This document shows positions 14,378 through 33,891 of a DNA stretch of 64,000 nucleotides, in pieces (the first letter of the stretch is position 1; the number at the start of each line of letters is the position of its first letter). The notes below the pieces were generated by a model. It saw only the letters and a list, made by a program, of their open reading frames with translations, ran no database searches and was not told the DNA's origin. Source of the DNA: a plasmid. Made by a program: the position numbers and the translations under genes. The stretch is from sequence record NZ_CP044080.1, one strand, 5' to 3'.

Positions 14378-15005
14378 CGTGAAAGCACCCCGCCAGCATC
14401 ACCAGCCGTTCCCCGGCGGCCAGCGGCGGACGCAGATGCGCATGGCGCGAACCGAAGATCGCCGCCGCGCGATTGCTGCGCGCGGTCAGCCGCATCGCCA
14501 GTCCCGTGGCCGAGTTGTCGCCCCGAAAGATGAACAGCTGCATGCCGGGGCTGGGCTCGACCCCGTCGGGCCAGGCCGCGTCCAGATAGGTCAGCAGGTT
14601 GTATTTGCAGCTGTCGGCCTTGTCGCAATGCTCGCCCATGTGTTCGGAGGGGCCGGTGTATCGCGTGTAGCAGGTCGCGCTCCAGGACGGGGCGAGGCGT
14701 TCGCCGGTCAGCGCGTGCAGCCAGGCCACGACGGCGTCCGAGGACAGATAGCCCCGCGCGACGGGGCCCAGATGGGCGCGGCGGTTGTCCTGCGCGATCT
14801 CGCCCCGGTCGCGGCTGCCGGTCAGCTGCCAGCTTTCGGCATCAAGCTGACCCAGCGCTTCCTCCAGCAGGGCGCGGTGCAAGGCGGCGTTCAGCGCAGG
14901 GGGCCCAAGGACCGTGACGCCGGTGGCGCGGAAGGCGTCGACATGCGCCGGCCCAAGCGCGGAGGGGTCGGCGAAGACGGCGTCGGCAATGGGGGCGTCA
15001 GGCAT
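14367..15005 (-). CDS. Hypothetical protein, possibly a 2OG-Fe(II)-oxygenase-like (HxD...H) tailoring enzyme
   Basis: Candidate facial-triad residues (GEHCD...FGSRHAH). Translationally coupled to its neighbours by 8-nt and 11-nt overlaps. Confidence 0.4.
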   Translation of the reverse strand: MPDAPIADAVFADPSALGPAHVDAFRATGVTVLGPPALNAALHRALLEEALGQLDAESWQLTGSRDRGEIAQDNRRAHLGPVARGYLSSDAVVAWLHALTGERLAPSWSATCYTRYTGPSEHMGEHCDKADSCKYNLLTYLDAAWPDGVEPSPGMQLFIFRGDNSATGLAMRLTARSNRAAAIFGSRHAHLRPPLAAGERLVMLAGCFHVAG

Positions 15006-16194
15006 GGGCGGTCTCCTTCGGCAGGGCCTCGACGGCTTGGCGCAGGTCCTCCATCAGCCCGGCGCCGGCCGGGGTGGCGGTGCCGTTGTCGGACAGCACC
15101 CGCCAGCCCTGGCGCGTGTTCGCCGCCTGCCGGGCCAGCACCCCGCGCGCGAAGCGGGCCGAGGCCCCGCCCCGCGCCGCAAGCCGGTCATACCAGGCGC
15201 AGACGTTCAGAAAGGCGTGCACGCCCAGCAGCAGCCCGTCCAGCGGGCGCTTGTCGCTGCGCCAGGGGCTGTCAAAGCCCGCTGCCTCGGCTGCAGGGTC
15301 GGTCGCAACCACCAGCGGATCGACGGCCTTGGCCCAATGCATCCGCACATGGCTGGATTCGTGGCACAGGAGGTCGCCCACCGTTTCCGGCGCCCCCGCC
15401 GTCATCATGATCGTGCCGCAGAGCGATTGCGGCGAATGGCTGCGCTCATAGCCGCGCGGCGCCAGCAGGACCAGGCCCCGGACATGCCGCGCCAGCGTCT
15501 CGGCCGCCGCGGGCCAGACCTGCGCCATCAGCGCAAGGCCAGTCGCGATGCGGGCCATGGCGGCATGCAGCACCTCGCCCTCTGCCAGAGCGAAGGGCGC
15601 CAAGGCCGCCCGCACCGCAGGGTCGGCGTTCAGCACGTCAAGGCCGCCGATCCGGGGGGCTGCGTGGAACAGGGCGTTCCCGGTTCCGGGCGGTGCGGGG
15701 ATGCCGGTCGCGAAGGTTGCCGATACGCCGTCGTCGCGCATCAGCCCGACGCGGCCGCCGCTTTGGCGCAGGGCGATGACCCGCGCGCCGGGGGCGTGCA
15801 GGACGATGCGCAGATGCGGCAGCATCAGATCCGCCGCCAGATCGCCGCCGGTGAACACAAGGGTCAGATCCTCGATATCCGGGGCGCCGATCAGGTGGCG
15901 GGCCAGGGCTGCGCGTCGCTCGGCCAGGCTGCGCGGGTCCTTGACCCCGTCCGGCGCCGTGACCCCGGTATCGAGCGAGGCGAGCGGATGGCCAAAGACC
16001 CGCAGCCGCGCCGGTTCGGGGCAGGCCTTCAGGGCGCGCGCGACCTCGACCGCGCAGGGCTCGTCCGCGCCCTCCAGCATGTCCGCCGCGCGGCGCGCGC
16101 AATCCCGGGCCCAGAGCGCCTGCAGGTGGTCGATGCCCTGGCCGGGGGGGCCTGGAAAGACCAGCCCTGTCAGGTCGGATACCGGGCCGGTCAT
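14998..16194 (-). CDS. HExxH-motif peptide-modification protein (family that co-occurs with FxsB-type radical SAM/SPASM maturases; alphaKG-HExxH beta-hydroxylase-like)
   Basis: Single HExxH (LLCHESSHVRMHW). About 400 aa. ATGA overlap with the radical SAM gene stop. Confidence 0.65.
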   Translation of the reverse strand: MTGPVSDLTGLVFPGPPGQGIDHLQALWARDCARRAADMLEGADEPCAVEVARALKACPEPARLRVFGHPLASLDTGVTAPDGVKDPRSLAERRAALARHLIGAPDIEDLTLVFTGGDLAADLMLPHLRIVLHAPGARVIALRQSGGRVGLMRDDGVSATFATGIPAPPGTGNALFHAAPRIGGLDVLNADPAVRAALAPFALAEGEVLHAAMARIATGLALMAQVWPAAAETLARHVRGLVLLAPRGYERSHSPQSLCGTIMMTAGAPETVGDLLCHESSHVRMHWAKAVDPLVVATDPAAEAAGFDSPWRSDKRPLDGLLLGVHAFLNVCAWYDRLAARGGASARFARGVLARQAANTRQGWRVLSDNGTATPAGAGLMEDLRQAVEALPKETAHA

Positions 16195-17759
16195 GCCGCC
16201 ACCCGCGCGGGCGTGAAATCGTGCTGGAACCGCACGCCGCCCCCTTCGAAATAGGAACAGCGGTTCAGGTGGTCGAACGCCGCCGCGTCAAAGGACAGAA
16301 GATGCATCAGCCAGGGATAAAGCGTCTTGTAGAACGCACATTCCGGCGTCTTGTGGCGCACGGTCCCATAGCTTTCCCAGGCCTGCGCCGAACAGCCCGA
16401 CTGGCAGAGCTGCCGATAGGGGCAGACCGCACAATCGTCGAAATCCGCCGGCCGGCGGGACCGGATCTCGGCGATGCGGGCAGAGCGGCGGGCCGGCTGG
16501 GACAGGCTCTCGATGCCGTCGTCGAAGATGTTGCCCAGCCGCAAGCCCGGCGATTGCGTGGCCCGCCCGCAGGGATAGATATCGCCGTTCGCCGCGACGG
16601 ATTGAAAGCTGTCGCCCGCCCCGCACTCGGCCCGCATGCAGCGGGTGCGGCGCTGCTTGCTGGTCAGAAAGCGGCACATGGAATGGATGTTATCCTCAAG
16701 CAGCAGGTCGCGCCGTGCGATGACGCCGCGCAGCAGGGCCTGGAAGAACGCGATGATCTGGTCCTGGGTCAGCCCCACCCGGTCCCAGTTCTTGCGCGCG
16801 TCGCCCAGATAGGCGACCGGGTTCACCCGAAAGCCGTGGATCGCGTGCCCCAGCATAAAGGACACCAGCCCGTCGGGATCGCCGATGTTCATGCGGTTCA
16901 GCACCACGAGGCCCCCGAAGGGGACGCCGCCCTGCTGAAGCAGCTCGATCCCACGCATCAGCGCCGGAAAGCTGGCCTTGCCGTTCACCATGGGCCGCCC
17001 GCTGTTCTGCGCCTGCGCGCCCCCGTCCAGCGAGATGCCCACGCGGATGTCATTGTCGCGCAGCCAGTCCACGCGTTCGGGCGTCAGCAGCGTGGCATTG
17101 GTCTGGATCGACAGGAACACCGTCCGCCCGCTGGCCCCCGGGTGGTTGCGGATATGATCCACCAGCCGCTGCATGATCGCGAATTTCAGGAACGGCTCGC
17201 CCCCGGCGAATTCGAATGCCAGCACCCGCGCCTCGGTCATGGCAAAGGCCAGGTCGACCGAACGCAAAGCGATGGTTTCGTCCATCGCGGGCATCTTCTG
17301 GTTCGCGCCCGCCAGGCAATAGGGACAGGCGAGATTGCATTTCTCGGTCAGCAAAAGCTCGACCAGGTGGCCCTCGTCATAGTTCGGCCCGTCGGCGAAC
17401 ATCCCGGCATCGACCGCGCGGGCACCGTTCAGCGCGATCAGCCCGCGCCGCCACAGATGCGCCGCGAAATCCAGCGCGGCGTCGGCGCTGTCCATCCGGG
17501 CCGCCAGGGCGCCGAAATCCCGCCCGTCCATCCAGCGGTGCAACGCGGCCTCGTCCGGGTTCAGGAACGCCCATGAGGCGCTTTCGGGATGGATCGCCAG
17601 GGTCTCGCCCTGGACCCGGACCTGATCGACGCCCTCGGTCGACAGTCTTGTGTCAGGACGCAGCGTGACCTGGCCGAAGGGGGCATAGGTCTTGCCCTGG
17701 GTCGCGCCCAGCCAAGGCGCCTCGGCCGCGTCGCGAGAGGGACAAAAGACATAGCGCAT
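16191..17759 (-). CDS. Radical SAM/SPASM-domain peptide maturase (FxsB / three-residue-cyclophane-forming-enzyme-like) with a ~130-aa N-terminal extension
   Basis: CxxxCxxC (CNLACPYC), a G-rich SAM motif (FEFAGGEPF) and a C-terminal SPASM Cys cluster (CGAGDSFQ...YPCG...CAVCPYRQLCQSGCSAQ). Start MRYVF at 17757-17759 overlaps the stop of the upstream gene by 1 nt. Confidence 0.85.
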   Translation of the reverse strand: MRYVFCPSRDAAEAPWLGATQGKTYAPFGQVTLRPDTRLSTEGVDQVRVQGETLAIHPESASWAFLNPDEAALHRWMDGRDFGALAARMDSADAALDFAAHLWRRGLIALNGARAVDAGMFADGPNYDEGHLVELLLTEKCNLACPYCLAGANQKMPAMDETIALRSVDLAFAMTEARVLAFEFAGGEPFLKFAIMQRLVDHIRNHPGASGRTVFLSIQTNATLLTPERVDWLRDNDIRVGISLDGGAQAQNSGRPMVNGKASFPALMRGIELLQQGGVPFGGLVVLNRMNIGDPDGLVSFMLGHAIHGFRVNPVAYLGDARKNWDRVGLTQDQIIAFFQALLRGVIARRDLLLEDNIHSMCRFLTSKQRRTRCMRAECGAGDSFQSVAANGDIYPCGRATQSPGLRLGNIFDDGIESLSQPARRSARIAEIRSRRPADFDDCAVCPYRQLCQSGCSAQAWESYGTVRHKTPECAFYKTLYPWLMHLLSFDAAAFDHLNRCSYFEGGGVRFQHDFTPARVAA

Positions 17760-18622
17760 CAGGAGCTTCCTTGTAGAACAGGGACGAGGATGCGAACGCG
17801 GTCGCCATCGTGCCGAGGGCCGGGATGCCATCCGTCGGGGCCCAGGGCGATGTCGCGGCGCATCCGCGCCTCGATCCCGGCCAAAAGCGCGGGGGCCGTC
17901 CGCGCCAGCCCCCCGGCCAGACGCCGCGCGCGGGCAAGGCTGGTGGCGCAGGTCCAGGAACAGGGGAAATGTTCGGTCAGGACGGGACCGGCGTAGCGGG
18001 CAAAGACGTTCAACTCCCACGGCATCTCTGCCCCCTCCGGCCCCAGCCGCATCCGGCCCAGATCGCCCGCGCAATGCGTCACTGCCTGCGGCCAGTCGCG
18101 CAGGAACGCCTCGATGCAGCAGGGCGGATATCCCAGCGCAAGGCCCATGACCCGGTCCCAGCCCCGCGCCTCGGCCAGCCACAGCAGCCAGGCCAACGAC
18201 GCTGAGGCCGAGACGGCGACCGCCCGCCATTCCCCCGCCGCGCCGCTTGCCGGCACCCGCGCCGCGGCAAGGTTCGCATAGCCCCCCAGGCCCGCGTCCC
18301 GCTGGGGCAGGAAGGCCCAGGCCGAGGGCATGGCGGTCAGCGACCGCCGCCGCGCCCAGTCGCAGACGCCGGCGATCCAGGGCTCGGGCCCGTGCAGCAG
18401 GACTGCCGGCCGCAAGCCGGCGGCCAGCATCTCAAGCTCAGCCACGGTGCCGATGGGGGCGCCGGGCCCGGCCGCGGGGATGGCCGGGCCCGGCAGCTCG
18501 TCCTCGGGCCCATCCGGGATCGCGGCCAGCAGCGCGTCGGGCAGTCCCAGGGCCTGGGCACGGGCGCGCACCGACAGTCCCCCTTCGCCGGACCTTGGCG
18601 AGGGCGCTTTGGCGCGGTGCAT
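17759..18622 (-). CDS. Conserved hypothetical Cys-rich protein in the RiPP-like operon (candidate partner/peptidase/scaffold)
   Basis: Open frame between the precursor stop (7-nt gap) and the radical SAM start (1-nt overlap). Motifs GYPPCCIEAF, HCAGD and FPCSWTCATS. Confidence 0.5.
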   Translation of the reverse strand: MHRAKAPSPRSGEGGLSVRARAQALGLPDALLAAIPDGPEDELPGPAIPAAGPGAPIGTVAELEMLAAGLRPAVLLHGPEPWIAGVCDWARRRSLTAMPSAWAFLPQRDAGLGGYANLAAARVPASGAAGEWRAVAVSASASLAWLLWLAEARGWDRVMGLALGYPPCCIEAFLRDWPQAVTHCAGDLGRMRLGPEGAEMPWELNVFARYAGPVLTEHFPCSWTCATSLARARRLAGGLARTAPALLAGIEARMRRDIALGPDGWHPGPRHDGDRVRILVPVLQGSS

Positions 18623-18629
18623 GGGCGGC

Positions 18630-19256
18630 CTAGCGCCGGATGCGGGTGCCGCGCACCGTCATGTCAAAGGCCCCGGTCGCGGGCACATCGACGCGCAACC
18701 CGCCCGGCAGCGTGACCCGGGTCAGATCGCGGCCGGGGTTGAGGACCGTCGAGGGGTCGAAATTGGCATGCCCGCCCCCGTTCACGAAGCCCGGCGGCCC
18801 CGAGTTCACATGCGAGCCCGCAATCGAGCCGGGGTCGAAATTCGCGTGCCCGCCGCCGTTCACGAAACCGGGTGGGCCGGAATTCACATGCGTTCCCGTG
18901 CCCCCCGAGGGGTCGAAGTTCGCATGGCCCCCGCCGTTCACGAAGCCCGGAGGCCCCGAGTTGACATGCACCCCGGCAATCGAGCCGGGATCGAAGTTCG
19001 CGTGCCCGCCGCCGTTCACGAAACCGGGTGGGCCCGAATTGACATGCGCCCCCGAGATGCCGCCCGGATTGCGGATCGCGCCGATGGCGCTGGCCACCTC
19101 GGTGCGCAGGATCGCGGTCAGGTCCTTGAGCGAAAGATCCGCCAGCTTGGTCTCGGGCGCAAGCGACCTGCCTTGGGATGCAGGGCGGTCGGCCTCGGGA
19201 TCACTGCCTGGGGTCGTCGATTGGCCTTCCTTGGAACCCTTGGGTTCTTGTGCCAT
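18630..19256 (-). CDS. Putative multi-core RiPP precursor: ~68-aa leader, four tandem 26-aa core repeats (HVNSGPPGFVNGGGHANFDP) and a ~40-aa C-terminal tail
   Basis: GGAGA Shine-Dalgarno 8 nt upstream of the ATG. Four ~78-bp DNA repeats (18750-19052) differ mainly at synonymous positions, so the peptide repeat is conserved. Immediately upstream of the maturase genes. Confidence 0.6.
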   Translation of the reverse strand: MAQEPKGSKEGQSTTPGSDPEADRPASQGRSLAPETKLADLSLKDLTAILRTEVASAIGAIRNPGGISGAHVNSGPPGFVNGGGHANFDPGSIAGVHVNSGPPGFVNGGGHANFDPSGGTGTHVNSGPPGFVNGGGHANFDPGSIAGSHVNSGPPGFVNGGGHANFDPSTVLNPGRDLTRVTLPGGLRVDVPATGAFDMTVRGTRIRR

Positions 19257-20889: not shown

Positions 20890-21300
20890 TCAGACGGCGG
20901 CCTGCCGCGCGCTGTCCCGCGCGCGCCCTTGGCTGACCGCAAAGACCAGCATCGCGAGGGCCGATACGGCAGCCGGAATCGCGAAGATCAGGAAGTTCTG
21001 GCCCAGCGGCATTCCCCAGGCCAGCAGCACGCCCCCGAAGGTCGGCCCGGCGACGGCGCCGATCCGACCCACCCCAAGGCCCAGCCCAGGCCCGCCCCGC
21101 GTACCGACAGGGTGTAAAGCTGCGCCACGCTGGCATAAAGCAGGATCTGCGTGCCGATGCTGGTGGCGCCCGCCACGAAGACCAGGGCGAACAGCAGCCA
21201 CGGCGAAGGGTTGGCGCCGATCAGCGCGATGGCCAGCGCGGCGGCGGCGAAGAAGCCCACGACGACCCTGGGCAGGCCAAAGCCTCCCTGTTGTCGTCAA
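20890..21300 (-). pseudogene. MFS transporter remnant: C-terminal ~4 TM helices only, internally frameshifted
   Basis: Two overlapping minus-strand frames carry an MFS C-terminus (LLFALVFVAGATSIGTQILLYASVAQLY... and ...PTFGGVLLAWGMPLGQNFLIFAIPAAVSALAMLVFAVSQ) with a frame switch near 21075. No N-terminal half is present. Confidence 0.45.
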
Positions 21301-21305
21301 TGCCG

Positions 21306-21670
21306 TCAGCCCAGATCGTCGCCCGCCACGGGCAGGCCCGAGCCGGTGATGTAGGACGCCTCGTCCGAGGCCAGGCATAGGATCGGCGCGGCCTGTTCCC
21401 GAATGCCGCCATAGCGGCGCATGAAGGCCGAATGCTTGACCTGTGCGACCACCTCGGCCATCCAGCGTTGCTCGTCGGAGCTGCCGCCCTCGGCGTTTCG
21501 GGAGACGCGGCGGGGCGGGGCCTCGGTCCCGCCCGAAGACACGTTGACGATGGTCCCGCCGCCCCGGGCCGTCAGATGCGGCAGGACCGCCCGGCAGCAA
21601 CGATCTGGGCGGGTTCGAATTTGGCGAAGGGCCTCATTCGGATCGCGCCGCGGACATTATTGATGAGGGC
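21306..21670 (-). pseudogene. Short-chain dehydrogenase/reductase remnant: 5'-truncated and frameshifted
   Basis: SDR C-terminal motifs lie in two different frames (NALINNVRGA...; GTIVNVSSGG...; CLASDEASYITGSGLPV). No N-terminal Rossmann region, because the next gene ends at 21723. Confidence 0.45.
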
Positions 21671-21722
21671 GTTCGGACCTGCGTTGCCGGGTGATCGACG
21701 ACGACCCGGCGGCATCGCCCGG

Positions 21723-22958
21723 TCAGGACGGGCCGGCCGGTGCGAGCTGCCGGGCAATCTGCGCGCCCGCCGCGCCCCAGCGGGCATGCAGGGCCGGGGC
21801 GCCGCCCTGCTGCCAGGACCGCCAGGCCTCGGCCGCCGGGATGCTGCCGAACCAGCCGATGCCCTGCGGCGCGGCGGGGGTATGCAGCACCTCGCGCTCG
21901 ACCAAAAGGCCGTCCTCGACCAGGATGGTGCGAGCGATGCGCGGGCGCTCGGGCGGTGGCAAGGCGGGCAGGTCGTCGGGAAAGTCCCGCCGCGCTGCCC
22001 AGAAGGGCTCGGCGCGAAAGCGTGGCTCGGCACGCAGGAAATCACGTCCGATCCGCGCCTGGTGCAGGCTGGTCTGCAGCGCCCGTTGCGTAAGGAAGCG
22101 GCGGCAAAGGGATTGCGCGCCGGGCCGGGCCGCCAGCGTGCGGCGCACGGCCGCGACGGCAAGCGCACTCGACACCGCCCAGAACTGGCCGTGGCCCGAA
22201 AGCGGGTCCATGGCAGCCAGGGCATCGCCGACGCGCAGCAGGTCCAATGCCCCGACCGGCCCGGGCAGGCGCGGCGCCGCCTCGCGCACCAGAGGCTGGC
22301 CGGAAAGCGGCGCATGAGCCAGCGCCGGCTCGGCCGCGGCCATGGCGGCTTGCAGCCGGCCAGCCGGGCTGCCGTCGCCGGCGGCGTCCAGCACCGCCTG
22401 GATCCAGACCCGTCCATCGGGCAACGCCACCCGCCACAGCCAGCCCTGCGGCAGCGCCACCAGCCGAATGCCGGGAGGCAGGTTGGCCCGCACCCAGCCG
22501 GACAGCGCCACCGTGGCCGGCGCCTTGCCGATGCTTGCACGCGCGCGGCGACCTCGCGCGTCGATGACCATGGGCGCGCGCAGTCTGTCGCTGCCCAGCC
22601 ACACGCCGCCCGGCTCGGGCCGGCCGCTGCCGATGGCCAGCCGAGCGCCAGCAGCCTGGGCGCAGCGGCGCAGATGGGCGTCCAGCGCAGCGCGCTCAAC
22701 CACATGTTCGGCATTGCTTTCGCTGACGCCCGCCCAGTCCACCTGCCGCCTGAACGGGCCGAAAATGCCGGCAAACCCGTCGATCAGCCCCTGGCCCGCC
22801 AGCCAACGGTGCAGGCGCGGGCTGAGCCCCTCGAGCCTCGGCCGGTCACGGGCGGGATCGATCAGCAGCACGCGCAGCCCGTCGCGCGCCGCAAGCCAGG
22901 CCGAAACCGCGCCTGCCGGCCCACCTCCCAGCACGATCAGATCGGCATCCGCGCCCAT
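21723..22958 (-). CDS. FAD-dependent oxidoreductase/monooxygenase (flavin halogenase / geranylgeranyl-reductase-like fold; QhpG-like candidate)
   Basis: N-terminal GxGxxG (DLIVLGGGPAGAVSAWLAARDG). About 411 aa. Divergent from the cytochrome/radical SAM pair. Start at MGADADLIV. Confidence 0.6.
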   Translation of the reverse strand: MGADADLIVLGGGPAGAVSAWLAARDGLRVLLIDPARDRPRLEGLSPRLHRWLAGQGLIDGFAGIFGPFRRQVDWAGVSESNAEHVVERAALDAHLRRCAQAAGARLAIGSGRPEPGGVWLGSDRLRAPMVIDARGRRARASIGKAPATVALSGWVRANLPPGIRLVALPQGWLWRVALPDGRVWIQAVLDAAGDGSPAGRLQAAMAAAEPALAHAPLSGQPLVREAAPRLPGPVGALDLLRVGDALAAMDPLSGHGQFWAVSSALAVAAVRRTLAARPGAQSLCRRFLTQRALQTSLHQARIGRDFLRAEPRFRAEPFWAARRDFPDDLPALPPPERPRIARTILVEDGLLVEREVLHTPAAPQGIGWFGSIPAAEAWRSWQQGGAPALHARWGAAGAQIARQLAPAGPS

Positions 22959-23160
22959 GCGCCGTTCCCTTTCCTTACCCTGCCTTGCCTGAATGAAAGG
23001 CACCTTGCGCCGGATTGCCGCCCGCGAACCTGACATTTGCGGCCAAAGCCACAGGGCGCGCGACGATGCGTCGCGACTCTGGCCGGGAATGACAAGAACC
23101 TGCCCGCCGCTGGCGCTTTTCTGGACCTCATCGCGATCGGGCCATTCCCGACAAGCCACA

Positions 23161-24129
23161 GGAAGCCGCCAGATGAAGCCACTGACCCGAACCGCCCTGG
23201 TCTCTGCCGCCGCCCTTGCCGCCGCCCCGGCGCTGGCGGTCAGCGGCGAGGACGTCCTGCAAAACGCCTGCGCCGCCTGCCACGTCAAGCACGAAGACGG
23301 CCGGTGGGAACGCATCGACGCCGTCCGCAAGACGCCCGAGGGCTGGGACATGACGGTGACGCGGATGATGCGCAATCACGGCGTCGCGCTGGAACCGCAA
23401 GAGCGGGCGGCTGTGGTCCGCTACCTGTCCGACACCCGCGGTCTGACGCCCGAAGAAGCCGAGGGGCGCCGCTATATCCTGGAACGCGAACCAGTGGCCT
23501 TCGACGAGGGTCCCGATACGCTGATGACCCAAACCTGCGGCCGATGCCATTCCTATGCCCGCGTCGCCCTGCAACGCCGCACGCCCGAGGATTGGGCGCA
23601 TCTGGTGAACTTCCACCTGGGCCAGTTCCCGACGCTGGAATACCAGGCGCTGGCGCGGGATCGCGACTGGTGGGGCATCGCCCAGGCCGAGATCATTCCC
23701 TTCCTCGCCAAGACCTATCCGCTGGGCGAGGCGCCGCCCGCCTTTGCCGGCGACGCTTCGGGCGACTACGTCCTGGCTGGGCGCCAGCCGGGGCGTGGCG
23801 ACTATACCGGACGGCTGGCGCTGACGAAAGCGGGTGACGATTACGCCGTGACCATGACGCTGGACTTCGCCGACGGCAGCGCAAGCTACAAGGGCACCGG
23901 CCGCATCCTGGGCGCCGGCGAATGGCGCGCGACGCTGAGCGACGGCAAGACCGGGATCCGCCAGGTCCTTGTTTTTCACGACGGCCGCTTCGACGGGCGC
24001 TGGTACCACGCCGACAGCGACGTGATCGGCGGCAGACTGGCGGCGGTGACGATGCGGGGCTTTTTACGCCAGGCGACGCCGGGCCGAACCCGGAACGCCC
24101 GATGCAGACCAACAACGCGGGCAACCTGA
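23161..24129 (+). CDS. Diheme c-type cytochrome with signal peptide (QhpA-like alpha subunit of quinohemoprotein amine dehydrogenase; probably frameshifted near the 3' end)
   Basis: Signal peptide MKPLTRTALVSAAALAAAPALA. Two CxxCH motifs (CAACH, CGRCH) about 90 residues apart. The apparent authentic C-terminus continues in another frame to 24227. Confidence 0.55.
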   Translation, partial: GSRQMKPLTRTALVSAAALAAAPALAVSGEDVLQNACAACHVKHEDGRWERIDAVRKTPEGWDMTVTRMMRNHGVALEPQERAAVVRYLSDTRGLTPEEAEGRRYILEREPVAFDEGPDTLMTQTCGRCHSYARVALQRRTPEDWAHLVNFHLGQFPTLEYQALARDRDWWGIAQAEIIPFLAKTYPLGEAPPAFAGDASGDYVLAGRQPGRGDYTGRLALTKAGDDYAVTMTLDFADGSASYKGTGRILGAGEWRATLSDGKTGIRQVLVFHDGRFDGRWYHADSDVIGGRLAAVTMRGFLRQATPGRTRNARCRPTTRAT

Positions 24130-24204
24130 AGGTCATCGCCACCGTGGACACGGGTGGCGTGCCGCTGACCGCCGAGGCGCATCTTTACGCCACGGTTCAG
24201 CGCT

Positions 24205-25584
24205 TTGTCGACGCGCCGATCCGGTGACGCCATGGGAGCCCTGACCCTGATCCGCCACAATGCCCGCCGGGTCGATGTCGACGGCCATGCCATGCTGATG
24301 TATGTGCCGACGACCAGCCTGTTCGAGCTCGACGGCGTGGCGCGCGACGTCTATGACCTGTTCCGCAGCGCGCCCGCCGTAGACCCAGACCTGATGCGGG
24401 CGCGGCTGGGCCGGCACAGCCCGGACACGCTGGCCGACTGCCTGCACAGCTTCCTGGCGCTCGACATCCTGCGTGACGCCGATGCGGCGGATACCCCCCG
24501 CCCGATCACGAAGGTCGAGGGGATTCCGCTGTCCACGATCATCCTGAACGTGAACACCGGCTGCAACCTGGCCTGCACCTATTGCTACAAGGAGGACCTG
24601 ACCACCCCCGCCAAGGGCCAGAAGATGGGCTTTCACACGGCGCGCGCCAGTTTCGAGCTGCTGCCGAAGCAGGCCCATGCCCGCGACCGGGTGAACGTGG
24701 TGTTCTTTGGCGGCGAGCCGCTGTCGAACATGCCGCTGATCCGCGAAGTGGTGGCCTATGCCCTGCCGCGCGCGGCGGAGCTGGGCAAGACGGTCGATTT
24801 CTCGCTGACCACCAATGCGACTCTGCTAATGCCCGACCTGGTCGACTGGTTCGACGCGCATCGCTTCGCGCTGACGGTCAGCATGGACGGGCCCAAGGTG
24901 CTGCACGACCAGAACCGCAAGACGGTGGGCGGCAAGGGCACCTATGACCTGGTGGCGCGCAATGTGCGCATGCTGCTCGCGCGCTATCGTTCGCGACCGG
25001 TCGGCGTACGGGTGACGCTGACGCGCGGCGTGACCGACGTCATCGGCATCCACGACCACCTGAAGAACGATCTCGGCTTCCACGAGGTCGGCTTCGGCCC
25101 GGCGACCTCGGGGCCGATCGCGGTATTCAACCTGGATCAGCAGGCGCTGCAAGCCGCCTTCGAGGACATGAAGACCCTGGGCCGACGCTATGTCGAGGCC
25201 GCCTGCCGGGGCGAGAATATCGGTTTTTCCAACATGCACCAGTTGCTGACCGACATCGCCCAAGGCACCAAGAAGGCCGTGCCCTGCGGCGCCGGGCTGG
25301 GAATGCTTGCCGTGGACAAGGAGGGCGATCTGCACCTCTGCCACCGCTTCGTCGGCTCGAACCAGCCGACCTATGGCAATGTCGCGCAGGGCATCGACGT
25401 GCCGGGGTCGTCGTATCGCGCCTTGGCCCGGCTATTCCCTGTTGCTGCCGACTTTAGCACAGGCGGGCCGCGACCTCTCAAAAAGCTGCGCCTTGGCGGC
25501 CCGGCCGGTGCGACGTCGCGAAGCCCTTGCGAATACGACAGTTTTGCGACGGATCGCGGCGATGGACGCCCGAGACGAACCTGA
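24205..25584 (+). CDS. Radical SAM protein, anSME/QhpD-like; the distal SPASM half appears degenerate
   Basis: CxxxCxxC (CNLACTYC), GGEP motif and the start of a SPASM domain (PCGAGLG...GDLHLCHRF). No further Cys cluster follows in any frame. Alternative start MGALT at 24232. Confidence 0.6.
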   Translation: MSTRRSGDAMGALTLIRHNARRVDVDGHAMLMYVPTTSLFELDGVARDVYDLFRSAPAVDPDLMRARLGRHSPDTLADCLHSFLALDILRDADAADTPRPITKVEGIPLSTIILNVNTGCNLACTYCYKEDLTTPAKGQKMGFHTARASFELLPKQAHARDRVNVVFFGGEPLSNMPLIREVVAYALPRAAELGKTVDFSLTTNATLLMPDLVDWFDAHRFALTVSMDGPKVLHDQNRKTVGGKGTYDLVARNVRMLLARYRSRPVGVRVTLTRGVTDVIGIHDHLKNDLGFHEVGFGPATSGPIAVFNLDQQALQAAFEDMKTLGRRYVEAACRGENIGFSNMHQLLTDIAQGTKKAVPCGAGLGMLAVDKEGDLHLCHRFVGSNQPTYGNVAQGIDVPGSSYRALARLFPVAADFSTGGPRPLKKLRLGGPAGATSRSPCEYDSFATDRGDGRPRRT

Positions 25585-25646
25585 CATTTCCGGCCAGATT
25601 TCCGGCCCCTGTCCCAGACTCGCCAGAAGGGTCCAGGAGGGGTGAG

Positions 25647-27050
25647 ATGACCGAATACAGACTGCTGATCGATGGAAAGCTGGTGCACGGCGACATGACC
25701 ATGGCGGTCGTTAACCCCGCCACCGAACAGGTGCTGGCCCGGGCGCCGCGCGCGTCCAGGGGGCAGCTCGACACCGCGGTGGCCGCGGCCAAGGCAGCCT
25801 TTCCGGCTTGGGCCGCACGCCCGATCAATGATCGGCGCGCGCTGATCCTGCGGATCGCCGACCAGCTTGAGGCACGGGCCGAGGAATTCGCCCGGCTGCT
25901 GACGCAGGAACAGGGCAAGCCCCTGCCCGAGGCGCAGGCCGAGATTGCCTACACCTGCGCCTTCATCCGCCACCTTGCGGGCTACGACCTGCCTGTGAAG
26001 GTGATCGAGGACAATGACAACCGGCTTGTCCGGCAGTTCCGCAAGCCGCTGGGGGTGGTGGGGGCGATCATCCCGTGGAACTTCCCGGTGCTGATTGTGG
26101 CCTTCAAGCTGCCGCTGGCACTGCTTGCCGGCAATACGATGGTGGTGAAGCCCGCACCGACCACGCCGCTGACCACGCTGAAGCTGGGCGAGATCATCGC
26201 CGAGATCCTGCCGCCGGGCGTGGTCAACATCGTCACCGACCAGAACGACCTGGGCCCGGCGCTGACGGCACACCCCGACGTTGCCAAGATCAGCTTCACC
26301 GGCTCGACCGCGACGGGGCAAAAGATCATGGCCAGCGCGGCATCAACCATCAAGCGGCTGACGCTGGAACTGGGCGGCAACGACGCGGCCATCGTGTTGC
26401 CGGGCGCCGATCCGGCCAAGGTTGCGCCGGGACTGTTCGCGGGCGCCTTCATGAATGCCGGACAGGTCTGCCTGGCGATCAAGCGCGCCTATGTCCACGG
26501 CTCGATCTATGACGAGGTCTGCGCCCGGCTGGCCGAACTGGCCGAAGCCGCCGTGGTCGGCGACGGCCTGCAGCAGGGCACCACCATCGGCCCGCTGCAA
26601 AACCGCATGCAGTTCGACAAGGTCAAGGCTCTGCTCGACTCGGCCCGCGCTGACGGTCGCATCATCGCGGGTGGCACACTGCCCGACGGGCCAGGCTATT
26701 TCATCCGCCCCACCATCGTCGCAGACGTCGCGGACGGCCATCGCATCGTGGACGAGGAACAGTTCGGTCCGATCCTGCCGGTGATCCGCTTCGACGATGT
26801 CGAGGCGGCCGTCGCCAGCGCCAACGGGCTGGACCTTGGCCTTGGCGGCTCGGTCTGGGGCGAGGACCATGACCTGGCCCGGAGCGTGGCCGAGCGCATC
26901 GACAGCGGCACGGTCTGGATCAACAAGCACCTGGATTTCGGACCGAACATCCCGTTCGGGGGTGCCAAGCAATCAGGGCTTGGCGTCGAGTTCGCCGAGG
27001 AGGGCCTGGCCGAGTTCACCCAGGTCCGCATCGTCAACGAGGCGCGCTGA
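25647..27050 (+). CDS. NAD(P)-dependent aldehyde dehydrogenase
   Basis: ALDH motifs (ELGGNDAAIV catalytic Glu; FMNAGQVCLAIKR catalytic Cys). AGGAGG-like RBS before the ATG at 25647. Confidence 0.85.
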   Translation: MTEYRLLIDGKLVHGDMTMAVVNPATEQVLARAPRASRGQLDTAVAAAKAAFPAWAARPINDRRALILRIADQLEARAEEFARLLTQEQGKPLPEAQAEIAYTCAFIRHLAGYDLPVKVIEDNDNRLVRQFRKPLGVVGAIIPWNFPVLIVAFKLPLALLAGNTMVVKPAPTTPLTTLKLGEIIAEILPPGVVNIVTDQNDLGPALTAHPDVAKISFTGSTATGQKIMASAASTIKRLTLELGGNDAAIVLPGADPAKVAPGLFAGAFMNAGQVCLAIKRAYVHGSIYDEVCARLAELAEAAVVGDGLQQGTTIGPLQNRMQFDKVKALLDSARADGRIIAGGTLPDGPGYFIRPTIVADVADGHRIVDEEQFGPILPVIRFDDVEAAVASANGLDLGLGGSVWGEDHDLARSVAERIDSGTVWINKHLDFGPNIPFGGAKQSGLGVEFAEEGLAEFTQVRIVNEAR

Positions 27051-27683: not shown

Positions 27684-28793
27684 ATGGGTCCGTTCCCGCA
27701 CGATGCCCCGAAGGCCACGATCAGCCCGGCAAACCCCGCCGGCACCGACGGCTTCGAATTCGTCGAATTCGCCCATCCCAACTCTGCGGTTCTGGACCGG
27801 GTCTTTCGCCAGATGGGCTTTGTTCCGGTCGCCCGGCACCGGACCAAGGACATCACGCTGTATCGCCAAGGCGACATCAACTATCTGCTGAACGCCGACC
27901 CGGACAGCCATGCGGCCGGCTTCGTCGGGGAACACGGGCCCTGCGCGCCGGCCATGGCCTGGCGGGTGGTCGATGCGCAGGTCGCGTTGAAACGCGCGCT
28001 GGACCTGGGCGCCACCGAATACACCGGCCCCGGCAAATCCATTGGGGCGCCCGCCGTCTACGGCATCGGCGGCTCGCTTCTGTATTTCATCGACAAATAT
28101 GGCGCCGAAGGCAGTGCCTATGAGGCCGATTACGCCTGGCTGGACGAGGTGAACCCCCGCCCCGAAGGCTTTGGCTTCTACTACCTCGACCACCTGACGC
28201 ACAATGTCATCCGCGGCAACATGGACACCTGGTACAGGTTCTACCACGACACGTTCAACTTCCGCGAGATCAAGTATTTCGATATCAGGGGCAGGCAGAC
28301 CGGCCTGGTCAGCCGGGCGCTGACCTCGCCCGACGGCAAGATCCGCATCCCGATCAACGAATCCACCGACGACCGCAGCCAGATCGAGGAGTACCTGCGC
28401 AGGTACAAGGGCGAGGGCATCCAGCACATCGCCATCGCAACCGAGGACATCTATGCCGGCACCGACCGTATCGCCGAAGCCGGCATGACGTTCATGCCCG
28501 GCCCGCCCGACACCTATTACGAAATGTCGCACAAGCGGGTGAGGGACCATCAGGAACCCGTCGAGCGCATGAGGAAGCACGGCATCCTGATCGACGGCGA
28601 AGGTGTGGTCGGCGGCGGCGAAACCCGCATCCTGCTGCAGATCTTCTCGAAGACGGTGATCGGCCCGATCTTCTTCGAGTTCATCCAGCGCAAGGGCGAC
28701 GATGGCTTCGGCGAGGGCAACTTCCGCGCGCTTTTCGAATCGATCGAGGAGGACCAGATCCGTCGCGGGGTCCTGAAGGCCACCACTGCGTGA
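27684..28793 (+). CDS. hppD: 4-hydroxyphenylpyruvate dioxygenase
   Basis: HPPD hallmarks (GFEFVEFAHP; HIAIATEDIY; IFFEFIQRKGDDGFGEGNFRALFESIE). AGGAGG RBS at 27673-27678. Confidence 0.85.
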   Translation: MGPFPHDAPKATISPANPAGTDGFEFVEFAHPNSAVLDRVFRQMGFVPVARHRTKDITLYRQGDINYLLNADPDSHAAGFVGEHGPCAPAMAWRVVDAQVALKRALDLGATEYTGPGKSIGAPAVYGIGGSLLYFIDKYGAEGSAYEADYAWLDEVNPRPEGFGFYYLDHLTHNVIRGNMDTWYRFYHDTFNFREIKYFDIRGRQTGLVSRALTSPDGKIRIPINESTDDRSQIEEYLRRYKGEGIQHIAIATEDIYAGTDRIAEAGMTFMPGPPDTYYEMSHKRVRDHQEPVERMRKHGILIDGEGVVGGGETRILLQIFSKTVIGPIFFEFIQRKGDDGFGEGNFRALFESIEEDQIRRGVLKATTA

Positions 28794-28865
28794 TACGTGT
28801 AGAGCCCAAGAAGCCTTTATAGGCGCCCTTCAGCGCATCAGCAATCAGCGGTCGGTATCGGACGC

Positions 28866-30161
28866 TCAGCACGTATCGCGCAGATGGCACTGCAACTGAT
28901 CGGCGAACCAGATGTTTCGCATGGGGTTCATACCCCATGATTGCATGTAGAAATGCGCGATATGGGACGGAATCCGGGTCCCGTCGCTGACCACAAGTTG
29001 CGCGGCCAGGGCACCCCCGGGGCTAAGCTGGTCCGCATAGGCAAGGCTGTCGCGCAGATAATCCATATCGCTGTCGGAGCGGCCATCGGGAAGGTTTCCC
29101 TTGCCGATCTGCGCCCGCTGGCAGGCTTCGCTAAGCGGCTTGCCACCTCGAACATAGGGAAGAAAGGCGATATCTGGCCGAGGTTCTCGTTTGAGGCAGG
29201 CGTTGACATAGGAAAGGCTGTTGGTGATGTAGCCGAATTGAGGCCCTTCCGCTCCTGAACCGTTGATGGTGCGGGTCGCATTCCAGAGGTGCCTGCTGCG
29301 ATCACGAAACAGCGCGGGGTCCTCTGCAACAAGCGCATAAGGATAATCGATCACGATTTCCGATATGGTGACAGAGTCCGGGCTGTCGGTCTGCAGCTTG
29401 GAAAAGGCAGTTAGGACGTCGACAAGATCCACGCTTGTGCCGCCGCCGCGTCTGGGCAGGCCTCGCAGTCGCCAGTTTGGAAGATTGACCACAAGCCGCA
29501 ATTGCGGAGGGGTGCCGTTATTTGCCTTGGTCACCAACTCGCGCATTTCGACCAGGTAAGAATGAACCGTCCGTACCGTCGTGTCGATATCGAAGCTTTT
29601 CTTGACCTTCAAACAACCGGCCTGCTTCGTTGATCCTTCGATCAAACGCAGGAAAGGGCCATCGACGTTCAGCGCAAGGATAGAAATCCCGGCGTTGGAC
29701 AGGCGCTGCAAGGATTGGTCGAACTCTTGCCGAGCCGCATGCCGACCCCGTTCCTCGGGCGAGAAACCCTGCCTGCACGCATCACCAGACAGGCCCGCCC
29801 CCGCCTCGTAACTGATCGAAAAGCCAAGATCGCGCTGCAGCCGGGCCAAGGCATCAAGATCGGCCTGCCGCAGGTAAGTCTCCTCTGGGCGGGAAATATA
29901 GGTCCCGTTCTCATTCCTGCCAAACCGCAGTTCGCTTTTCATCAGGAACGTGCCATTCAGTAGGATTTCCTGGACCCCAGCCTCATGCAGGTTCCTCCAT
30001 ACCGGTACTGTGTCGGCGCCAAACAGCGTCTGATTGTCAAGCGCGCGCGGACTCGGGCCAAACACGATGTCGGCTTCCGCCCGCGCTGGCACTGCCGACA
30101 GCACCGCCAGTGACAGGGAAAGAGCCAGCGACTTTGCCCAAGTCCGCACGGGAGCCATCAT
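28866..30161 (-). CDS. Secreted hypothetical protein (signal peptide) in a lower-GC polysaccharide-related island
   Basis: Signal peptide MMAPVRTWAKSLALSLSLAVLSAVPARA. 4-nt overlap with the upstream glycosyltransferase. GC is lower than the genome background. Confidence 0.5.
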   Translation of the reverse strand: MMAPVRTWAKSLALSLSLAVLSAVPARAEADIVFGPSPRALDNQTLFGADTVPVWRNLHEAGVQEILLNGTFLMKSELRFGRNENGTYISRPEETYLRQADLDALARLQRDLGFSISYEAGAGLSGDACRQGFSPEERGRHAARQEFDQSLQRLSNAGISILALNVDGPFLRLIEGSTKQAGCLKVKKSFDIDTTVRTVHSYLVEMRELVTKANNGTPPQLRLVVNLPNWRLRGLPRRGGGTSVDLVDVLTAFSKLQTDSPDSVTISEIVIDYPYALVAEDPALFRDRSRHLWNATRTINGSGAEGPQFGYITNSLSYVNACLKREPRPDIAFLPYVRGGKPLSEACQRAQIGKGNLPDGRSDSDMDYLRDSLAYADQLSPGGALAAQLVVSDGTRIPSHIAHFYMQSWGMNPMRNIWFADQLQCHLRDTC

Positions 30162-32443
30162 GAAATGGGCTCATCTTGCTTGCCGCAATGACGCGACAGC
30201 ACAGTCAGGTACAGGTCCTCATATTTCATGCTTGGTTCCAGCATAGCCTTTTCGGCCCATTCGTTCCAAGCGTTGATGAACAGTTCGTGCCGATAGGATT
30301 GAGCCAAGGCTTTTTCCCGGAGCGTCCGGAGCCAGAGGTTAAAGGACGCGGGGTTCGCTCCCAAGGCGATATGTGCGTCTTTCCCGCGTCGTGCGGTATT
30401 GTCCCAGGACGGCATCACCCCCCGGATGGTATTGGGCGGAAGAGCCCTTGAATATTTGTCCGAGACGGACGTCTGGGCAATCCTGTTGTAATCGTAAACA
30501 AGGCCCGAGAACTCGCCCTGCATCCCGCGCTCCAGAACGTTCCCCTTGGGTCCGCCAAACAGATAGTCGTCCCCTTGGACCAGACCATGCGGAGGCATTT
30601 CGATCCAGAAATCGAAGCAGTCCTGGCGGTGATCCTTGTCGCGGTCCAGATGGAACAGGACGGCACCGATTTCGACCTCGCCTACGCCATTGCGCCTCCA
30701 GGCCTGCCGAAGTCTCTCGACCGACGCCGCGGCATCGGGCAAATCGCTCGGCCGATAGATGACGAACCGCGGCCGGACGCCATCGGGGCGCTGATATCTT
30801 TCGTCGCGCATATAGGGCGCGCAATCGTCGGCAAAGGCGGTTTCAAATCCTTCCAGGTAGCTTTGCTCCAGAAGAACCGTGCCCGACATGCCATCCCAGT
30901 TCCGGCGCCAGCTTTCGTTCGCCCAGCACAGATAGAAGGGAAAGTCGATATCAGGACGCTTCAACAGATTATCCAGCGGCTGTTCCAATATCCGGCGGCC
31001 GTTGAACCAGTAGTGATAGACGCAAAAGGCATCGATCCCCGCCTTCCGCGCAAGCTCTGCCTGACTGCCCATCACCTCGGGCAGGCGCAGGTCGTAAAAT
31101 CCCAGATCCAAGGGAAGCATGGGTTGGGTGTGCCCTTCGAAGGAAGGCTTCGCAGTCACCACATTCCGCCACTCGGTGAAACCCTTGCCCCACCAGCGGT
31201 CATTTTCCTTGGTGGGATGGAATTGAGGCAGGTAGAAAGCACTGACATAGCGCGGCTTTCTGGACGACGTGGTTTCGTGGCCAGCAGTCTCCAACTCGGA
31301 CGTCTGGACGATCCTGTTGCCGAAAGCCTTGCACAGCGGCCCCATAGCCCGTTCAAAGCCATGAGCCACCGTCCCGTCGACCTGGCCATATTCGATGTCA
31401 AAATCGTTGGCGTTCAGCTGCAGCGCCTTGATCATGGCGATCATGTCGGATTTCAGCCAGTACATCGAGCCTGCGGGAAAGCCGCAATTCGCCCGGTCCA
31501 GCTCGATTTCCACCCTGTGCAGGATCTGCCGGGTTATTTCATAATTCGAACCCCACCATTTCGTGTCTTCATAGTGCTGTCCGTCGGACACCCAAACGGA
31601 CGCCCTGTCGTCGCACATGAAATTGTCGAGCCGATCGGGAAGGCTTTCTGGAGACAACAAGCCTTCGATCAGGTGCCGCCTCCAGATATCGCCGTCCAGT
31701 CGGTGGGGCGACTTCTTGGTGTGGATCTTGCAGATCGCCTTGTATTTTGACAGAAGCCCAGCATTCACCAAGCTGACGAAGGGCAGAATATCGCGGCCAC
31801 GGTTTTCCATCTGAACCACCACGGCATCGGGGAACGCTTCGGACACAAGGCGCTGACATTCGTTGGTAGCCTTTCCCCGATAGGTCAGGGTGACATACAG
31901 GTCAAAGTCGATGGTCAGGCTTTTCAGGATCTGTTCAAATTCGGGCCATAGCTCCGGATAATAGACGTGAACTACAACGGCATAGGGATTGACCGCTTCC
32001 TTTTTCAGCGCACCGATGTTCGGCGTCTTTTCAGGCGGTATCCGCTCGACCTCTGGCAGATCCTTGTAGAGTCGGTTCTCAAATCGGCCGGTCTTTGCAT
32101 AATGCAGAAGGGGAGAAATCCCCGCCGCGCGCACATCGGCATTGTACTTCAAGTAGGCGAACGGGGAAAAGTCCGGATTTGGCCGGAAACCACTGCTCTC
32201 GCCATAAACCGCGTAATGCCTGAGCGGGAACTTCTTGAACAGAGGATGAATATGGGGATAAGCGCCAAGGTAATATGTCTTGTCGAACAGATTTTCCGCC
32301 TTCGCGGCGCGGATCAGGGCCTTCTCCGAACTGCGAAGATTGAAGATCCGGAGAAATCTGAAAGCCCGTTGAGTGGTGGAAGCGGTTTGCTGGACCGAAC
32401 TCTTATACATTCTTGCAGTCCTGACTTCAAATTTTGTCGACAA
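30158..32443 (-). CDS. Two-domain glycosyltransferase: rhamnan-synthesis RgpF-like N-terminus fused to a WbsX-like (AFYLPQFHP) C-terminus
   Basis: N-terminal region has RgpF-type features (VVHVYYPELWPEF). C-terminal half opens with the WbsX signature (YVSAFYLPQFHPTKENDRWWGKGFTEW). 761 aa. Confidence 0.6.
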   Translation of the reverse strand: MSTKFEVRTARMYKSSVQQTASTTQRAFRFLRIFNLRSSEKALIRAAKAENLFDKTYYLGAYPHIHPLFKKFPLRHYAVYGESSGFRPNPDFSPFAYLKYNADVRAAGISPLLHYAKTGRFENRLYKDLPEVERIPPEKTPNIGALKKEAVNPYAVVVHVYYPELWPEFEQILKSLTIDFDLYVTLTYRGKATNECQRLVSEAFPDAVVVQMENRGRDILPFVSLVNAGLLSKYKAICKIHTKKSPHRLDGDIWRRHLIEGLLSPESLPDRLDNFMCDDRASVWVSDGQHYEDTKWWGSNYEITRQILHRVEIELDRANCGFPAGSMYWLKSDMIAMIKALQLNANDFDIEYGQVDGTVAHGFERAMGPLCKAFGNRIVQTSELETAGHETTSSRKPRYVSAFYLPQFHPTKENDRWWGKGFTEWRNVVTAKPSFEGHTQPMLPLDLGFYDLRLPEVMGSQAELARKAGIDAFCVYHYWFNGRRILEQPLDNLLKRPDIDFPFYLCWANESWRRNWDGMSGTVLLEQSYLEGFETAFADDCAPYMRDERYQRPDGVRPRFVIYRPSDLPDAAASVERLRQAWRRNGVGEVEIGAVLFHLDRDKDHRQDCFDFWIEMPPHGLVQGDDYLFGGPKGNVLERGMQGEFSGLVYDYNRIAQTSVSDKYSRALPPNTIRGVMPSWDNTARRGKDAHIALGANPASFNLWLRTLREKALAQSYRHELFINAWNEWAEKAMLEPSMKYEDLYLTVLSRHCGKQDEPIS

Positions 32444-33401
32444 GGCGGCGCGACAGTTGGACCCAGTACGCCGGAGTCAGTGAATCTCTGAAGACCACGT
32501 TATTTTCCTTCGGAAAAGCGCCGATTTCCACTCCACCACTCCTATCCTGGAACTGCCTGTTCAGGGGGCCGAATACATCTTTGAGCCGTTGATATTCGTC
32601 CTTGGTGAAGATGGTTGTTTTCATCCCGTCCTTGCCAATGTCGTCCAGCGCAACCCTTGCTGTTTCCAGAAGCCATGACTTGAACGGCCTGCCTCCAAGG
32701 ACATGCGCCACAACCCATGTTCCCAGCGGATCGGGAGAGACGTTGCTGTTTCCGGCAGGCAGGTCTTTCAGCGCACCGGCAAACTGGGGTAAGCCACATT
32801 CCGTCATCATGCGGCCGATGATGCCGTGACTTTCGCGCGCCTCGCGCTCGTATGAGAAAAAGGAAATTTCTTCTGGCGAGAAGGCAGTTTCCAGATAGTC
32901 TTTCAGATCGTTGTAATCCAGAAACAAGCCCGTGGCCATCTTGGAGGAAGCCGCGCCTTCAAAGAAGTTTCCCCAATGAATATTCACGCCGCTCTTGACG
33001 ACCTGCAGATATATGGATTGCAGGAATGAAATCTGGTTCCGCAGAAAGCAGACGACCTTTACTTCGTCAAAGTCAGACAGCATGTCTCGCAGTTTTCGCA
33101 TGTCGACCCGCGAATTCGGGTTTCCGCGCGAGAGTTCCTCGGTGCTGATCAGAACCGTGCGATCCGATTTCGCGTGGTCCCTTGCCAGCTTGGCCCATGC
33201 CGCTTGCGCGGTGGTGTCCAGATGGTAGGCTTCGGGCAGCTTTATCCAGTCCATTACCAAACCGTGCTGCCCACTCGCCTTTCCTATTTCCGGGAAGACA
33301 AGACCTTTTTCGGAAAGAAAACTCCTGTTCAATGCAAAGGTGTCTTGGATCGTCGTTGTGCCGGTTTTATGGGTACCGATATGCAGGATCACCTTGGACA
33401 T
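32427..33401 (-). CDS. Sulfotransferase-family protein (putative PAPS-dependent)
   Basis: N-terminal 5'-phosphosulfate-binding-like loop (ILHIGTHKTGTTTIQ). Operon with the glycosyltransferase via a 17-nt overlap. Start at MSKVILH. Confidence 0.5.
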   Translation of the reverse strand: MSKVILHIGTHKTGTTTIQDTFALNRSFLSEKGLVFPEIGKASGQHGLVMDWIKLPEAYHLDTTAQAAWAKLARDHAKSDRTVLISTEELSRGNPNSRVDMRKLRDMLSDFDEVKVVCFLRNQISFLQSIYLQVVKSGVNIHWGNFFEGAASSKMATGLFLDYNDLKDYLETAFSPEEISFFSYEREARESHGIIGRMMTECGLPQFAGALKDLPAGNSNVSPDPLGTWVVAHVLGGRPFKSWLLETARVALDDIGKDGMKTTIFTKDEYQRLKDVFGPLNRQFQDRSGGVEIGAFPKENNVVFRDSLTPAYWVQLSRRLVDKI

Positions 33402-33834
33402 TGCAGCTCTTGTTTTCTTGTGGCGTTTTGGGGCTCTTATCATGCGGGGACGGCGCTACACAACTGCGGTTCTGGCGCGCCAGATGGCGGCCGGCTGCAA
33501 CCCGCCCGGGCTTGACCGGAGCGTGAGTGCAAAGCTTTGTAATCAAGCTTCTGACAATGACGGATTCCCAAATTTTCCTTTAAACCCATAGTTGAAGCTT
33601 GAGGGCTGCGTGCAATGAAAAGCCTGCTGGATCAGCCTCTCACTTGGCCCGGAAGGCCGCGCCGCGTCAGCGGCGGCCTGTCGGGACCGGGGGTTGCCGT
33701 TGCAATGACCACGTTCACATAGTTGTGGACGTCATTTCTGGCCCGGCGGATCGGGCGGCGTGAACGGTGTCCTGGTTCAGCAAACGACATGGCGGACGAT
33801 CCCTCCATGCAGCCCAGACAAACGCGCAGAAAGC

Positions 33835-33862
33835 AAAGGCTGGCCCCGAAAGGCCAGCCTGC
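33835..33862 (-). terminator. Candidate stem-loop terminator downstream of terC
   Basis: Inverted repeat AGGCTGGCC-ccgaa-GGCCAGCCT about 30 nt past the terC stop. The minus-strand trailing sequence is only partly T-rich (TTTGCTTTCT). Confidence 0.3.
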
Positions 33863-33891
33863 AGCACCCGCGATCAAATCGGAACGAACGA

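Follow-up and report, generated by a model that had tools for sequence, protein, structure and literature searches.

In a 64,000-nucleotide stretch of the plasmid record NZ_CP044080.1, comparison with intact relatives identifies, almost certainly, the qhp (quinohemoprotein amine dehydrogenase, QHNDH) locus that a Paracoccus yeei-type strain carries on a plasmid, here inactivated by deletions. The whole of this stretch is called the window here, and positions are counted from its first nucleotide. Positions 21723-27050 contain an intact qhpG, a broken qhpA, a truncated qhpD, and an intact aldehyde dehydrogenase gene (aldh). The operon and its proteins are already known, the mode of loss is ordinary, and the locus is no new or smaller system. 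A reading of the letters alone (the original prediction) had suggested that an amine dehydrogenase operon was decaying through deletions and frameshifts, and alignment to intact relatives bears this out; the cytochrome, the radical S-adenosylmethionine (SAM) protein, and the flavin adenine dinucleotide (FAD) enzyme that it described were all found, with small coordinate corrections. The profile searches it recommended for the first two matched the QhpA and QhpD families. QhpA, QhpD, and QhpG all exceed the NCBIfam equivalog cut-offs, with the matches of QhpA and QhpD partial in coverage despite these scores. Nothing contradicts the deletion reading.

The ancestral state can be read from close relatives. 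A megablast search against PLSDB returned three complete P. yeei plasmids at 97.5-98.6% identity, each carrying the full locus: FDAARGOS_252 unnamed1 (NZ_CP020441.2), TT13 pTT13-1 (NZ_CP024423.1), and CCUG 32053 pYEE1 (NZ_CP031079.1). On these plasmids qhpG is transcribed away from qhpA-D-C-B-E-F, which is followed by qhpR in the opposite orientation and then by aldh; the annotations read peaA/qhpA, peaB/qhpD, qhpC, peaD/qhpB, subtilisin, ABC transporter, AraC regulator, and aldehyde dehydrogenase. The window shares with all three an upstream flank (HExxH protein, radical SAM protein, 208-aa repeat protein, and alpha/beta hydrolase) and a downstream flank (Lrp/AsnC and hppD), with gene order and orientation alike. 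Alignment with the FDAARGOS_252 plasmid is continuous from 13146 to beyond 29379 (>16 kb) at 97.5-97.7% identity, with exactly three interruptions, of 481 bp, 4,973 bp, and 52 bp. Flanks included, the window thus follows an intact conspecific qhp locus closely in both order and sequence, and the same gene order across Paracoccus makes it implausible that the intact P. yeei alleles are insertions.

The first interruption falls within qhpA. Its 5′ fragment, which encodes the signal peptide, di-haem domain I, and domain II, is 99% identical in amino acids to residues 1-292 of P. yeei PeaA and matches positions 6-288 of 510 of TIGR03908 (345 bits) in a profile search. Past the junction its frame continues for 26 out-of-frame codons to a stop at 24127-24129, giving a product of 318 aa. 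The N-terminus is signal-like, with CAACH at residue 33 and CGRCH at residue 122, a spacing of 89 residues, so that the signal-peptide diheme cytochrome with these two motifs ~90 residues apart stands as originally described, whereas its start, placed at 23161, is corrected to 23173. The 3′ remnant, out of frame with the 5′ fragment, matches TIGR03908 positions 442-510 and is 100% identical to the PeaA C-terminus. Lost between them with the 481 bp are codons 293-452, for domain III and the first half of domain IV, and the reading frame changes at the junction; the same gap appears against three further Paracoccus loci (L001, L003, and L004), with the blastn gap at 24047-24049. A full-length QhpA with domains to IV is not encoded, TIGR03908 positions 289-441 being deleted and 442-510 lying in another frame.

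The second interruption truncates qhpD and removes everything up to the region before aldh. The 4,973-bp deletion runs from qhpD codon 391 through qhpC, qhpB, qhpE, qhpF, and qhpR plus 59 bp upstream of qhpR, fusing codon 391 to the qhpR-aldh intergenic region; against other Paracoccus species, blastn shows a gap of ~4.98 kb at ~25400-25410. The identities of qhpD and qhpC in the reference follow the annotation of the P. yeei plasmids. The qhpD frame runs 59 codons into former qhpR-aldh intergenic DNA to a stop at 25582-25584, giving a truncated product of 450 aa. Intact P. yeei QhpD has 484 aa; the last 93 codons are gone here, and with them C408/411/417/421/440, including the CxxCx5Cx3C SPASM cysteines, while the radical-SAM CX3CX2C motif (C111/115/118) and C325/352/370 are kept. 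The profile search found no SPASM (PF13186) match in the window QhpD and therefore no complete SPASM domain, and the TIGR03906 match ends at 384 of 467, as expected from the description of a radical SAM protein lacking its second SPASM half. In a scan of one genome per species, the closest relatives of the fragment were from Paracoccus, at 91-93% amino acid identity.

The lost genes are not found elsewhere in the window. With P. denitrificans proteins as queries, tblastn (E<=1e-3 in the search for QhpC) gave no match to QhpC, QhpB, QhpE, or QhpR in the whole 64 kb, and QhpF gave only a weak match (25% identity) to an unrelated ABC protein at 7191-7760. All five genes lie within the segment that the references have and the window lacks, and no complete qhpC or qhpB, which the original prediction had named as the finding that would count against it, is present within the 64 kb. 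Its observation that no gamma- or beta-subunit gene follows, and that an aldehyde dehydrogenase starts at 25647 instead, was correct. On the P. denitrificans DSM 413 locus, NCBIfam models gave names to three of the missing genes (QH_beta, QhpE, and QhpR) and also to QH_alpha and QhpG; QhpF of DSM 413 was named by position, since NCBIfam gives for it only generic ABC-exporter families below their cut-offs.

The third gene, qhpG, is whole. QhpG, the flavoprotein monooxygenase expected in a functional operon, is present; it scores 404 bits against NF049967 (cut-off 240) over profile positions 2-420 of 423, that is, at full length, and is equal in length and 99.3% identical in amino acids to its FDAARGOS_252 counterpart WP_080620245. 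The FAD enzyme had been called divergent, but within its family it is an ordinary, intact, full-length QhpG.

Table 1. Features of the qhp locus and its upstream neighbours in the window.
Feature	Position	Strand	Evidence and remarks
aKG-HExxH-type peptide beta-hydroxylase	15001-16194	-	TIGR04267, 89.6 bits
Radical SAM/SPASM maturase	16194-17759	-	Below every NCBIfam cut-off; best DynA, 151 bits vs 450
287-aa protein	17762-18622	-	No family
208-aa protein	18633-19256	-	4-5 tandem repeats of ~HVNSGPPGFVNGGGHANFDP; no family match
Major facilitator superfamily (MFS) transporter, C-terminal fragment, frameshifted	~20890-21330	-	PF07690
Short-chain dehydrogenase, C-terminal fragment	~21330-21690	-	PF13561 positions 187-231
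qhpG, flavin-dependent monooxygenase (cysteine tryptophylquinone, CTQ, biogenesis)	21726-22958 (21723 including stop)	-	Intact, 411 aa + stop
Inverted motif pair, ~15-20 nt, in the qhpG-qhpA divergent promoter region	23026-23094		GAACCTGACATTTGCGGCCA at 23026-23045, TGGCCGGGAATGACA at 23080-23094
qhpA 5′ fragment, codons 1-292	23173-24048	+	PF09098 2e-87, PF14930 8e-28
Deletion junction 1	24048		481 bp absent relative to the P. yeei FDAARGOS_252 locus excerpt (L086), 12084-12563/4
qhpA 3′ remnant, last 58 codons + stop	24051-24227	+	PF09100 9e-21
qhpD 5′ fragment, codons 1-391	24232-25404	+	TIGR03906, 600 bits, profile positions 1-384 of 467
Deletion junction 2	25404		4,973 bp absent relative to L086, 13921-18892
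qhpR-aldh intergenic remnant	25405-25646	+	Second motif copy at 25577-25596; third deletion, 52 bp, junction within 25601-25605
Aldehyde dehydrogenase (aldh), 467 aa	25647-27050	+	Intact; PF00171 9e-152

The 481-bp and 4,973-bp junctions each share a single nucleotide (G) with both parental arms when compared with the conspecific reference. Microhomologies of 3-6 nt (TGA and GCCGGG), suggested by alignment to other species, shrank to this one nucleotide. No insertion sequence (IS) ends or long repeats were seen in the junction sequences, on inspection and not by a dedicated repeat scan. Single-base junctions suggest illegitimate, end-joining-like recombination and not homologous or IS-mediated events.

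Contigs from other public data, at least ten read sets or metagenome assemblies in all, carry the same two junctions at 99.4-100% identity. Logan contigs from SRR8991243, SRR8991244, and SRR8991245 span both, are 100% identical to positions 22568-26387, and encode the exact 450-aa QhpD. The exact 318-aa QhpA is encoded on contigs from ERZ22666027, ERR1009409, ERR12726375, and ERR14830253 that are collinear through junction 1, as is a contig of a Copenhagen sewage metagenome (ERZ22666132), found through QhpG, that carries the 318-aa QhpA gene. Junction 2 is spanned by contigs of ERZ27141859, ERZ11425653, ERZ22666027, and ERR1009409. An exact search for junction 1 gave no match in the JGI metagenome collection, the junction being present in ENA and Logan assemblies. 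The resequencing across the breakpoints that was originally advised is in effect supplied by these many independent assemblies, from which the deletion haplotype is seen to mark a real, circulating P. yeei sublineage. In the ERZ27141859 contig the 4,973-bp deletion is present and the 52-bp segment is still kept, which indicates that the larger loss preceded the smaller and that the deletion allele has diversified since. The ERZ11425653 contig has seven synonymous differences within 85 bp of the qhpD fragment (against 25224-25308), at the contig end, and is otherwise nearly identical to the window; this cluster may stem from recombination with another allele or from a chimeric end of the contig.

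The age of the loss was judged from the ratio of nonsynonymous to synonymous differences (pN/pS) relative to the conspecific plasmid, which is 0.10 for qhpG, 0.13 for the qhpA fragments, 0.14 for the qhpD fragment, and 0.10 for aldh, with other flanking genes at 0.00-0.48. Beyond the deletions, the remnants have no extra stops or frameshifts. Pairwise NG86 dN/dS against five or six Paracoccus species gave nothing decisive on the remnants, and lineage-unique amino acid changes show at most a weak excess in qhpD (13 vs 0-7 in relatives); the deletion lineage itself holds too few variants to judge selection. Because the surviving fragments lack extra stops and have ordinary pN/pS, the simplest reading is that the loss happened recently, measured against divergence within the species, yet long enough ago to define a sublineage in many samples, and that the ~2.4% divergence arose mostly before the genes ceased to function.

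The gene beyond the second junction, aldh, is probably still in use. Its orthologue adjoins qhpR in five Paracoccus loci (L001, L003-L006) as well as on each of the three P. yeei plasmids, and the exact protein is encoded by two metagenome contigs that differ from the window in DNA (ERZ27141859, 99.6% over 11.4 kb; ERZ11425653, 99.4% over 1.9 kb). Upstream of it lies a copy of a motif that is also found before qhpA: the 20-mer GAACCTGACATTT[C/G]CGGCCA occurs exactly twice in the window (0 expected), one copy lying 147 bp upstream of qhpA and the other 51 bp upstream of aldh. Among fourteen loci of Paracoccus and relatives (L001-L014) and that of FDAARGOS_252, an inverted pair, TGACATTTsCGGCCA / TGGCCGGsAATGACA, ~47-49 bp apart, stands upstream of qhpA in most of the Paracoccus loci, and in several of these genomes upstream of aldh as well. 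This pair is a candidate operator of the AraC-type regulator QhpR. The third deletion, identified against both FDAARGOS_252 and the ERZ27141859 contig, removed the aldh-side partner half-site TGGCCGGATTTGGCA, and the half-site left behind, once ~103 bp upstream of the aldh start, is now 51 bp upstream of it; on the qhpA side both halves are present. A 4-bp direct repeat, CCGG, flanks the 52 bp, for which reason the loss fits slippage.

The 52-bp loss may be further decay of an orphaned operator or, with much lower probability, a re-tuning of aldh expression. The second option belongs to a wider alternative in which selection favoured the loss of QHNDH in a sublineage associated with humans or sewage, and the 52-bp deletion altered the control of aldh so that it is expressed without QhpR. 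The deletion haplotype does occur in many samples, sewage metagenomes among them; the small loss postdates the large one and takes exactly the partner half-site of a conserved motif; and aldh is intact at a pN/pS of 0.10. Against these points, the lineage is not diverse enough for a test of selection, hitch-hiking in a clonal lineage can spread a neutral deletion, and the function of the motif is putative. Adaptive remodelling of this kind is given an outside chance; if true, it would offer a small case, open to dating, of regulation being rewired once an operon was lost.

Three changes have occurred in this lineage. A 481-bp deletion took codons 293-452 out of qhpA, with a shift of frame. With the 4,973-bp deletion went the auxiliary-cluster cysteines of the QhpD SPASM domain, the gamma subunit (which bears CTQ) and the beta subunit, QhpE (the leader protease), QhpF (the exporter), and QhpR (the activator). 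A 52-bp deletion later took one half of the conserved inverted-repeat motif before aldh. Oozeki et al. (2021; PMC7876137), with reference to Nakai et al. (2014), report that every one of the qhp genes is needed for the periplasmic enzyme to be produced on induction by amine, and QhpC is described in the same paper as the substrate of QhpD, QhpE, and QhpG. Since all the genes are reported as required, no QHNDH should be made from this locus, and qhpG and the qhpA and qhpD fragments would be relics.

Several points qualify the deletion reading. The remnants show no sign of relaxed constraint, with pN/pS of 0.10-0.14, like their intact neighbours. The classing of qhpG as a relic would follow from the loss of its only known substrate, QhpC, and not from decay of its own sequence, and both the deletion mechanism and the loss of phenotype are inferred. 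The view is also limited to 64 kb of the genome, which leaves room for a second, intact qhp operon elsewhere that would make the plasmid copy dispensable. Paracoccus genomes are multipartite, and gene duplication between replicons occurs. However, no second copy lies in the window, and a plasmid search found one qhp-bearing plasmid per strain, with the same context, in the three complete P. yeei strains (their chromosomes were not part of that search); a redundant copy is accordingly held to be quite unlikely.

The original prediction had also hedged that a divergent, smaller related system might be present, namely a functional qhp-like set of short cytochrome, short radical SAM protein, and flavoprotein without gamma or beta subunits. 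The three reading frames are uninterrupted, and identical truncated proteins recur in several samples. Against this, the short proteins match the corresponding parts of full-length P. yeei proteins at 97-99% identity before continuing into intergenic or out-of-frame sequence, the last 59 codons of qhpA (stop included) are still there in another frame, QhpD has lost all five C-terminal cysteines including CxxCx5Cx3C, and QhpC, the substrate that bears the cofactor, is gone. What is missing corresponds exactly to the segments that the window lacks against conspecific DNA of ~97.6% identity; with the qhpA tail surviving out of frame and former intergenic DNA supplying the qhpD tail, the idea is excluded. 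Because the G+C content of this part of the window is ~65-72%, mechanical lists of open reading frames are crowded here. That the operon is intact in the organism and was broken by sequencing or assembly has virtually no probability: nothing specific favours it beyond the coverage dropouts that a GC-rich region (~0.67-0.71) could in principle cause, and the junctions are not assembly errors because both recur base for base in at least ten independent read sets and metagenomes, in ERZ27141859 with junction 2 on a slightly different haplotype.

The surroundings of the broken qhp locus hold further features. Just upstream, at 15001-19256 on the minus strand, is a four-gene cluster resembling those for peptides that are made on ribosomes and then modified post-translationally (RiPP), conserved in all three P. 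yeei plasmids. Its radical SAM protein is 100% identical in amino acids to that of FDAARGOS_252 despite 19 synonymous differences. The cluster is probably an uncharacterised multi-core precursor with its maturases and may be of more interest than the qhp relic. Between the alpha/beta hydrolase gene and qhpG, at ~20890-21690 on the minus strand, are two older gene remnants, which predate the qhp deletions because they are collinear with FDAARGOS_252; CCUG 32053 has a LysR fragment in their place, and gene fragments seem to collect in this intergenic stretch as in a hotspot. Downstream, at ~28000-34000, G+C falls to 0.55-0.60, against ~0.67-0.72 elsewhere, and the segment encodes a 431-aa protein (no family), a 750-761-aa RgpF/WbsX-type glycosyltransferase, and a sulfotransferase-like protein; it may be an island for polysaccharide modification gained by horizontal transfer.

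The importance of these findings is small beyond annotation. In annotation, qhpA and qhpD should be treated as pseudogenes and qhpG as an orphan, and the set should not be taken for a new minimal amine-dehydrogenase system or a RiPP-like radical SAM pair. This P. yeei lineage is predicted to be unable to use n-butylamine-type primary amines through QHNDH; no literature linking Paracoccus yeei with amine dehydrogenase was found. The two large junctions serve as lineage markers, seen in several sewage and other metagenomes, and the inverted motif upstream of qhpA and aldh offers a lead for the QhpR operator.

Besides the P. yeei plasmids, a close known system is the qhp operon of P. denitrificans (qhpABCDEFGR), which makes a CTQ- and thioether-crosslinked gamma subunit. 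In strain DSM 413 the order is qhpG (minus strand), qhpA, qhpD, qhpC, qhpB, qhpE, qhpF, qhpR (minus strand), and aldh. The orthologues of qhpG, qhpA, qhpD, and aldh in the window (71-92% amino acid identity, tblastn) are arranged alike, and the synteny comparison originally proposed shows the DSM 413 locus to be collinear with the window save for two gaps. Measured against that operon, the window has five genes absent and two broken.

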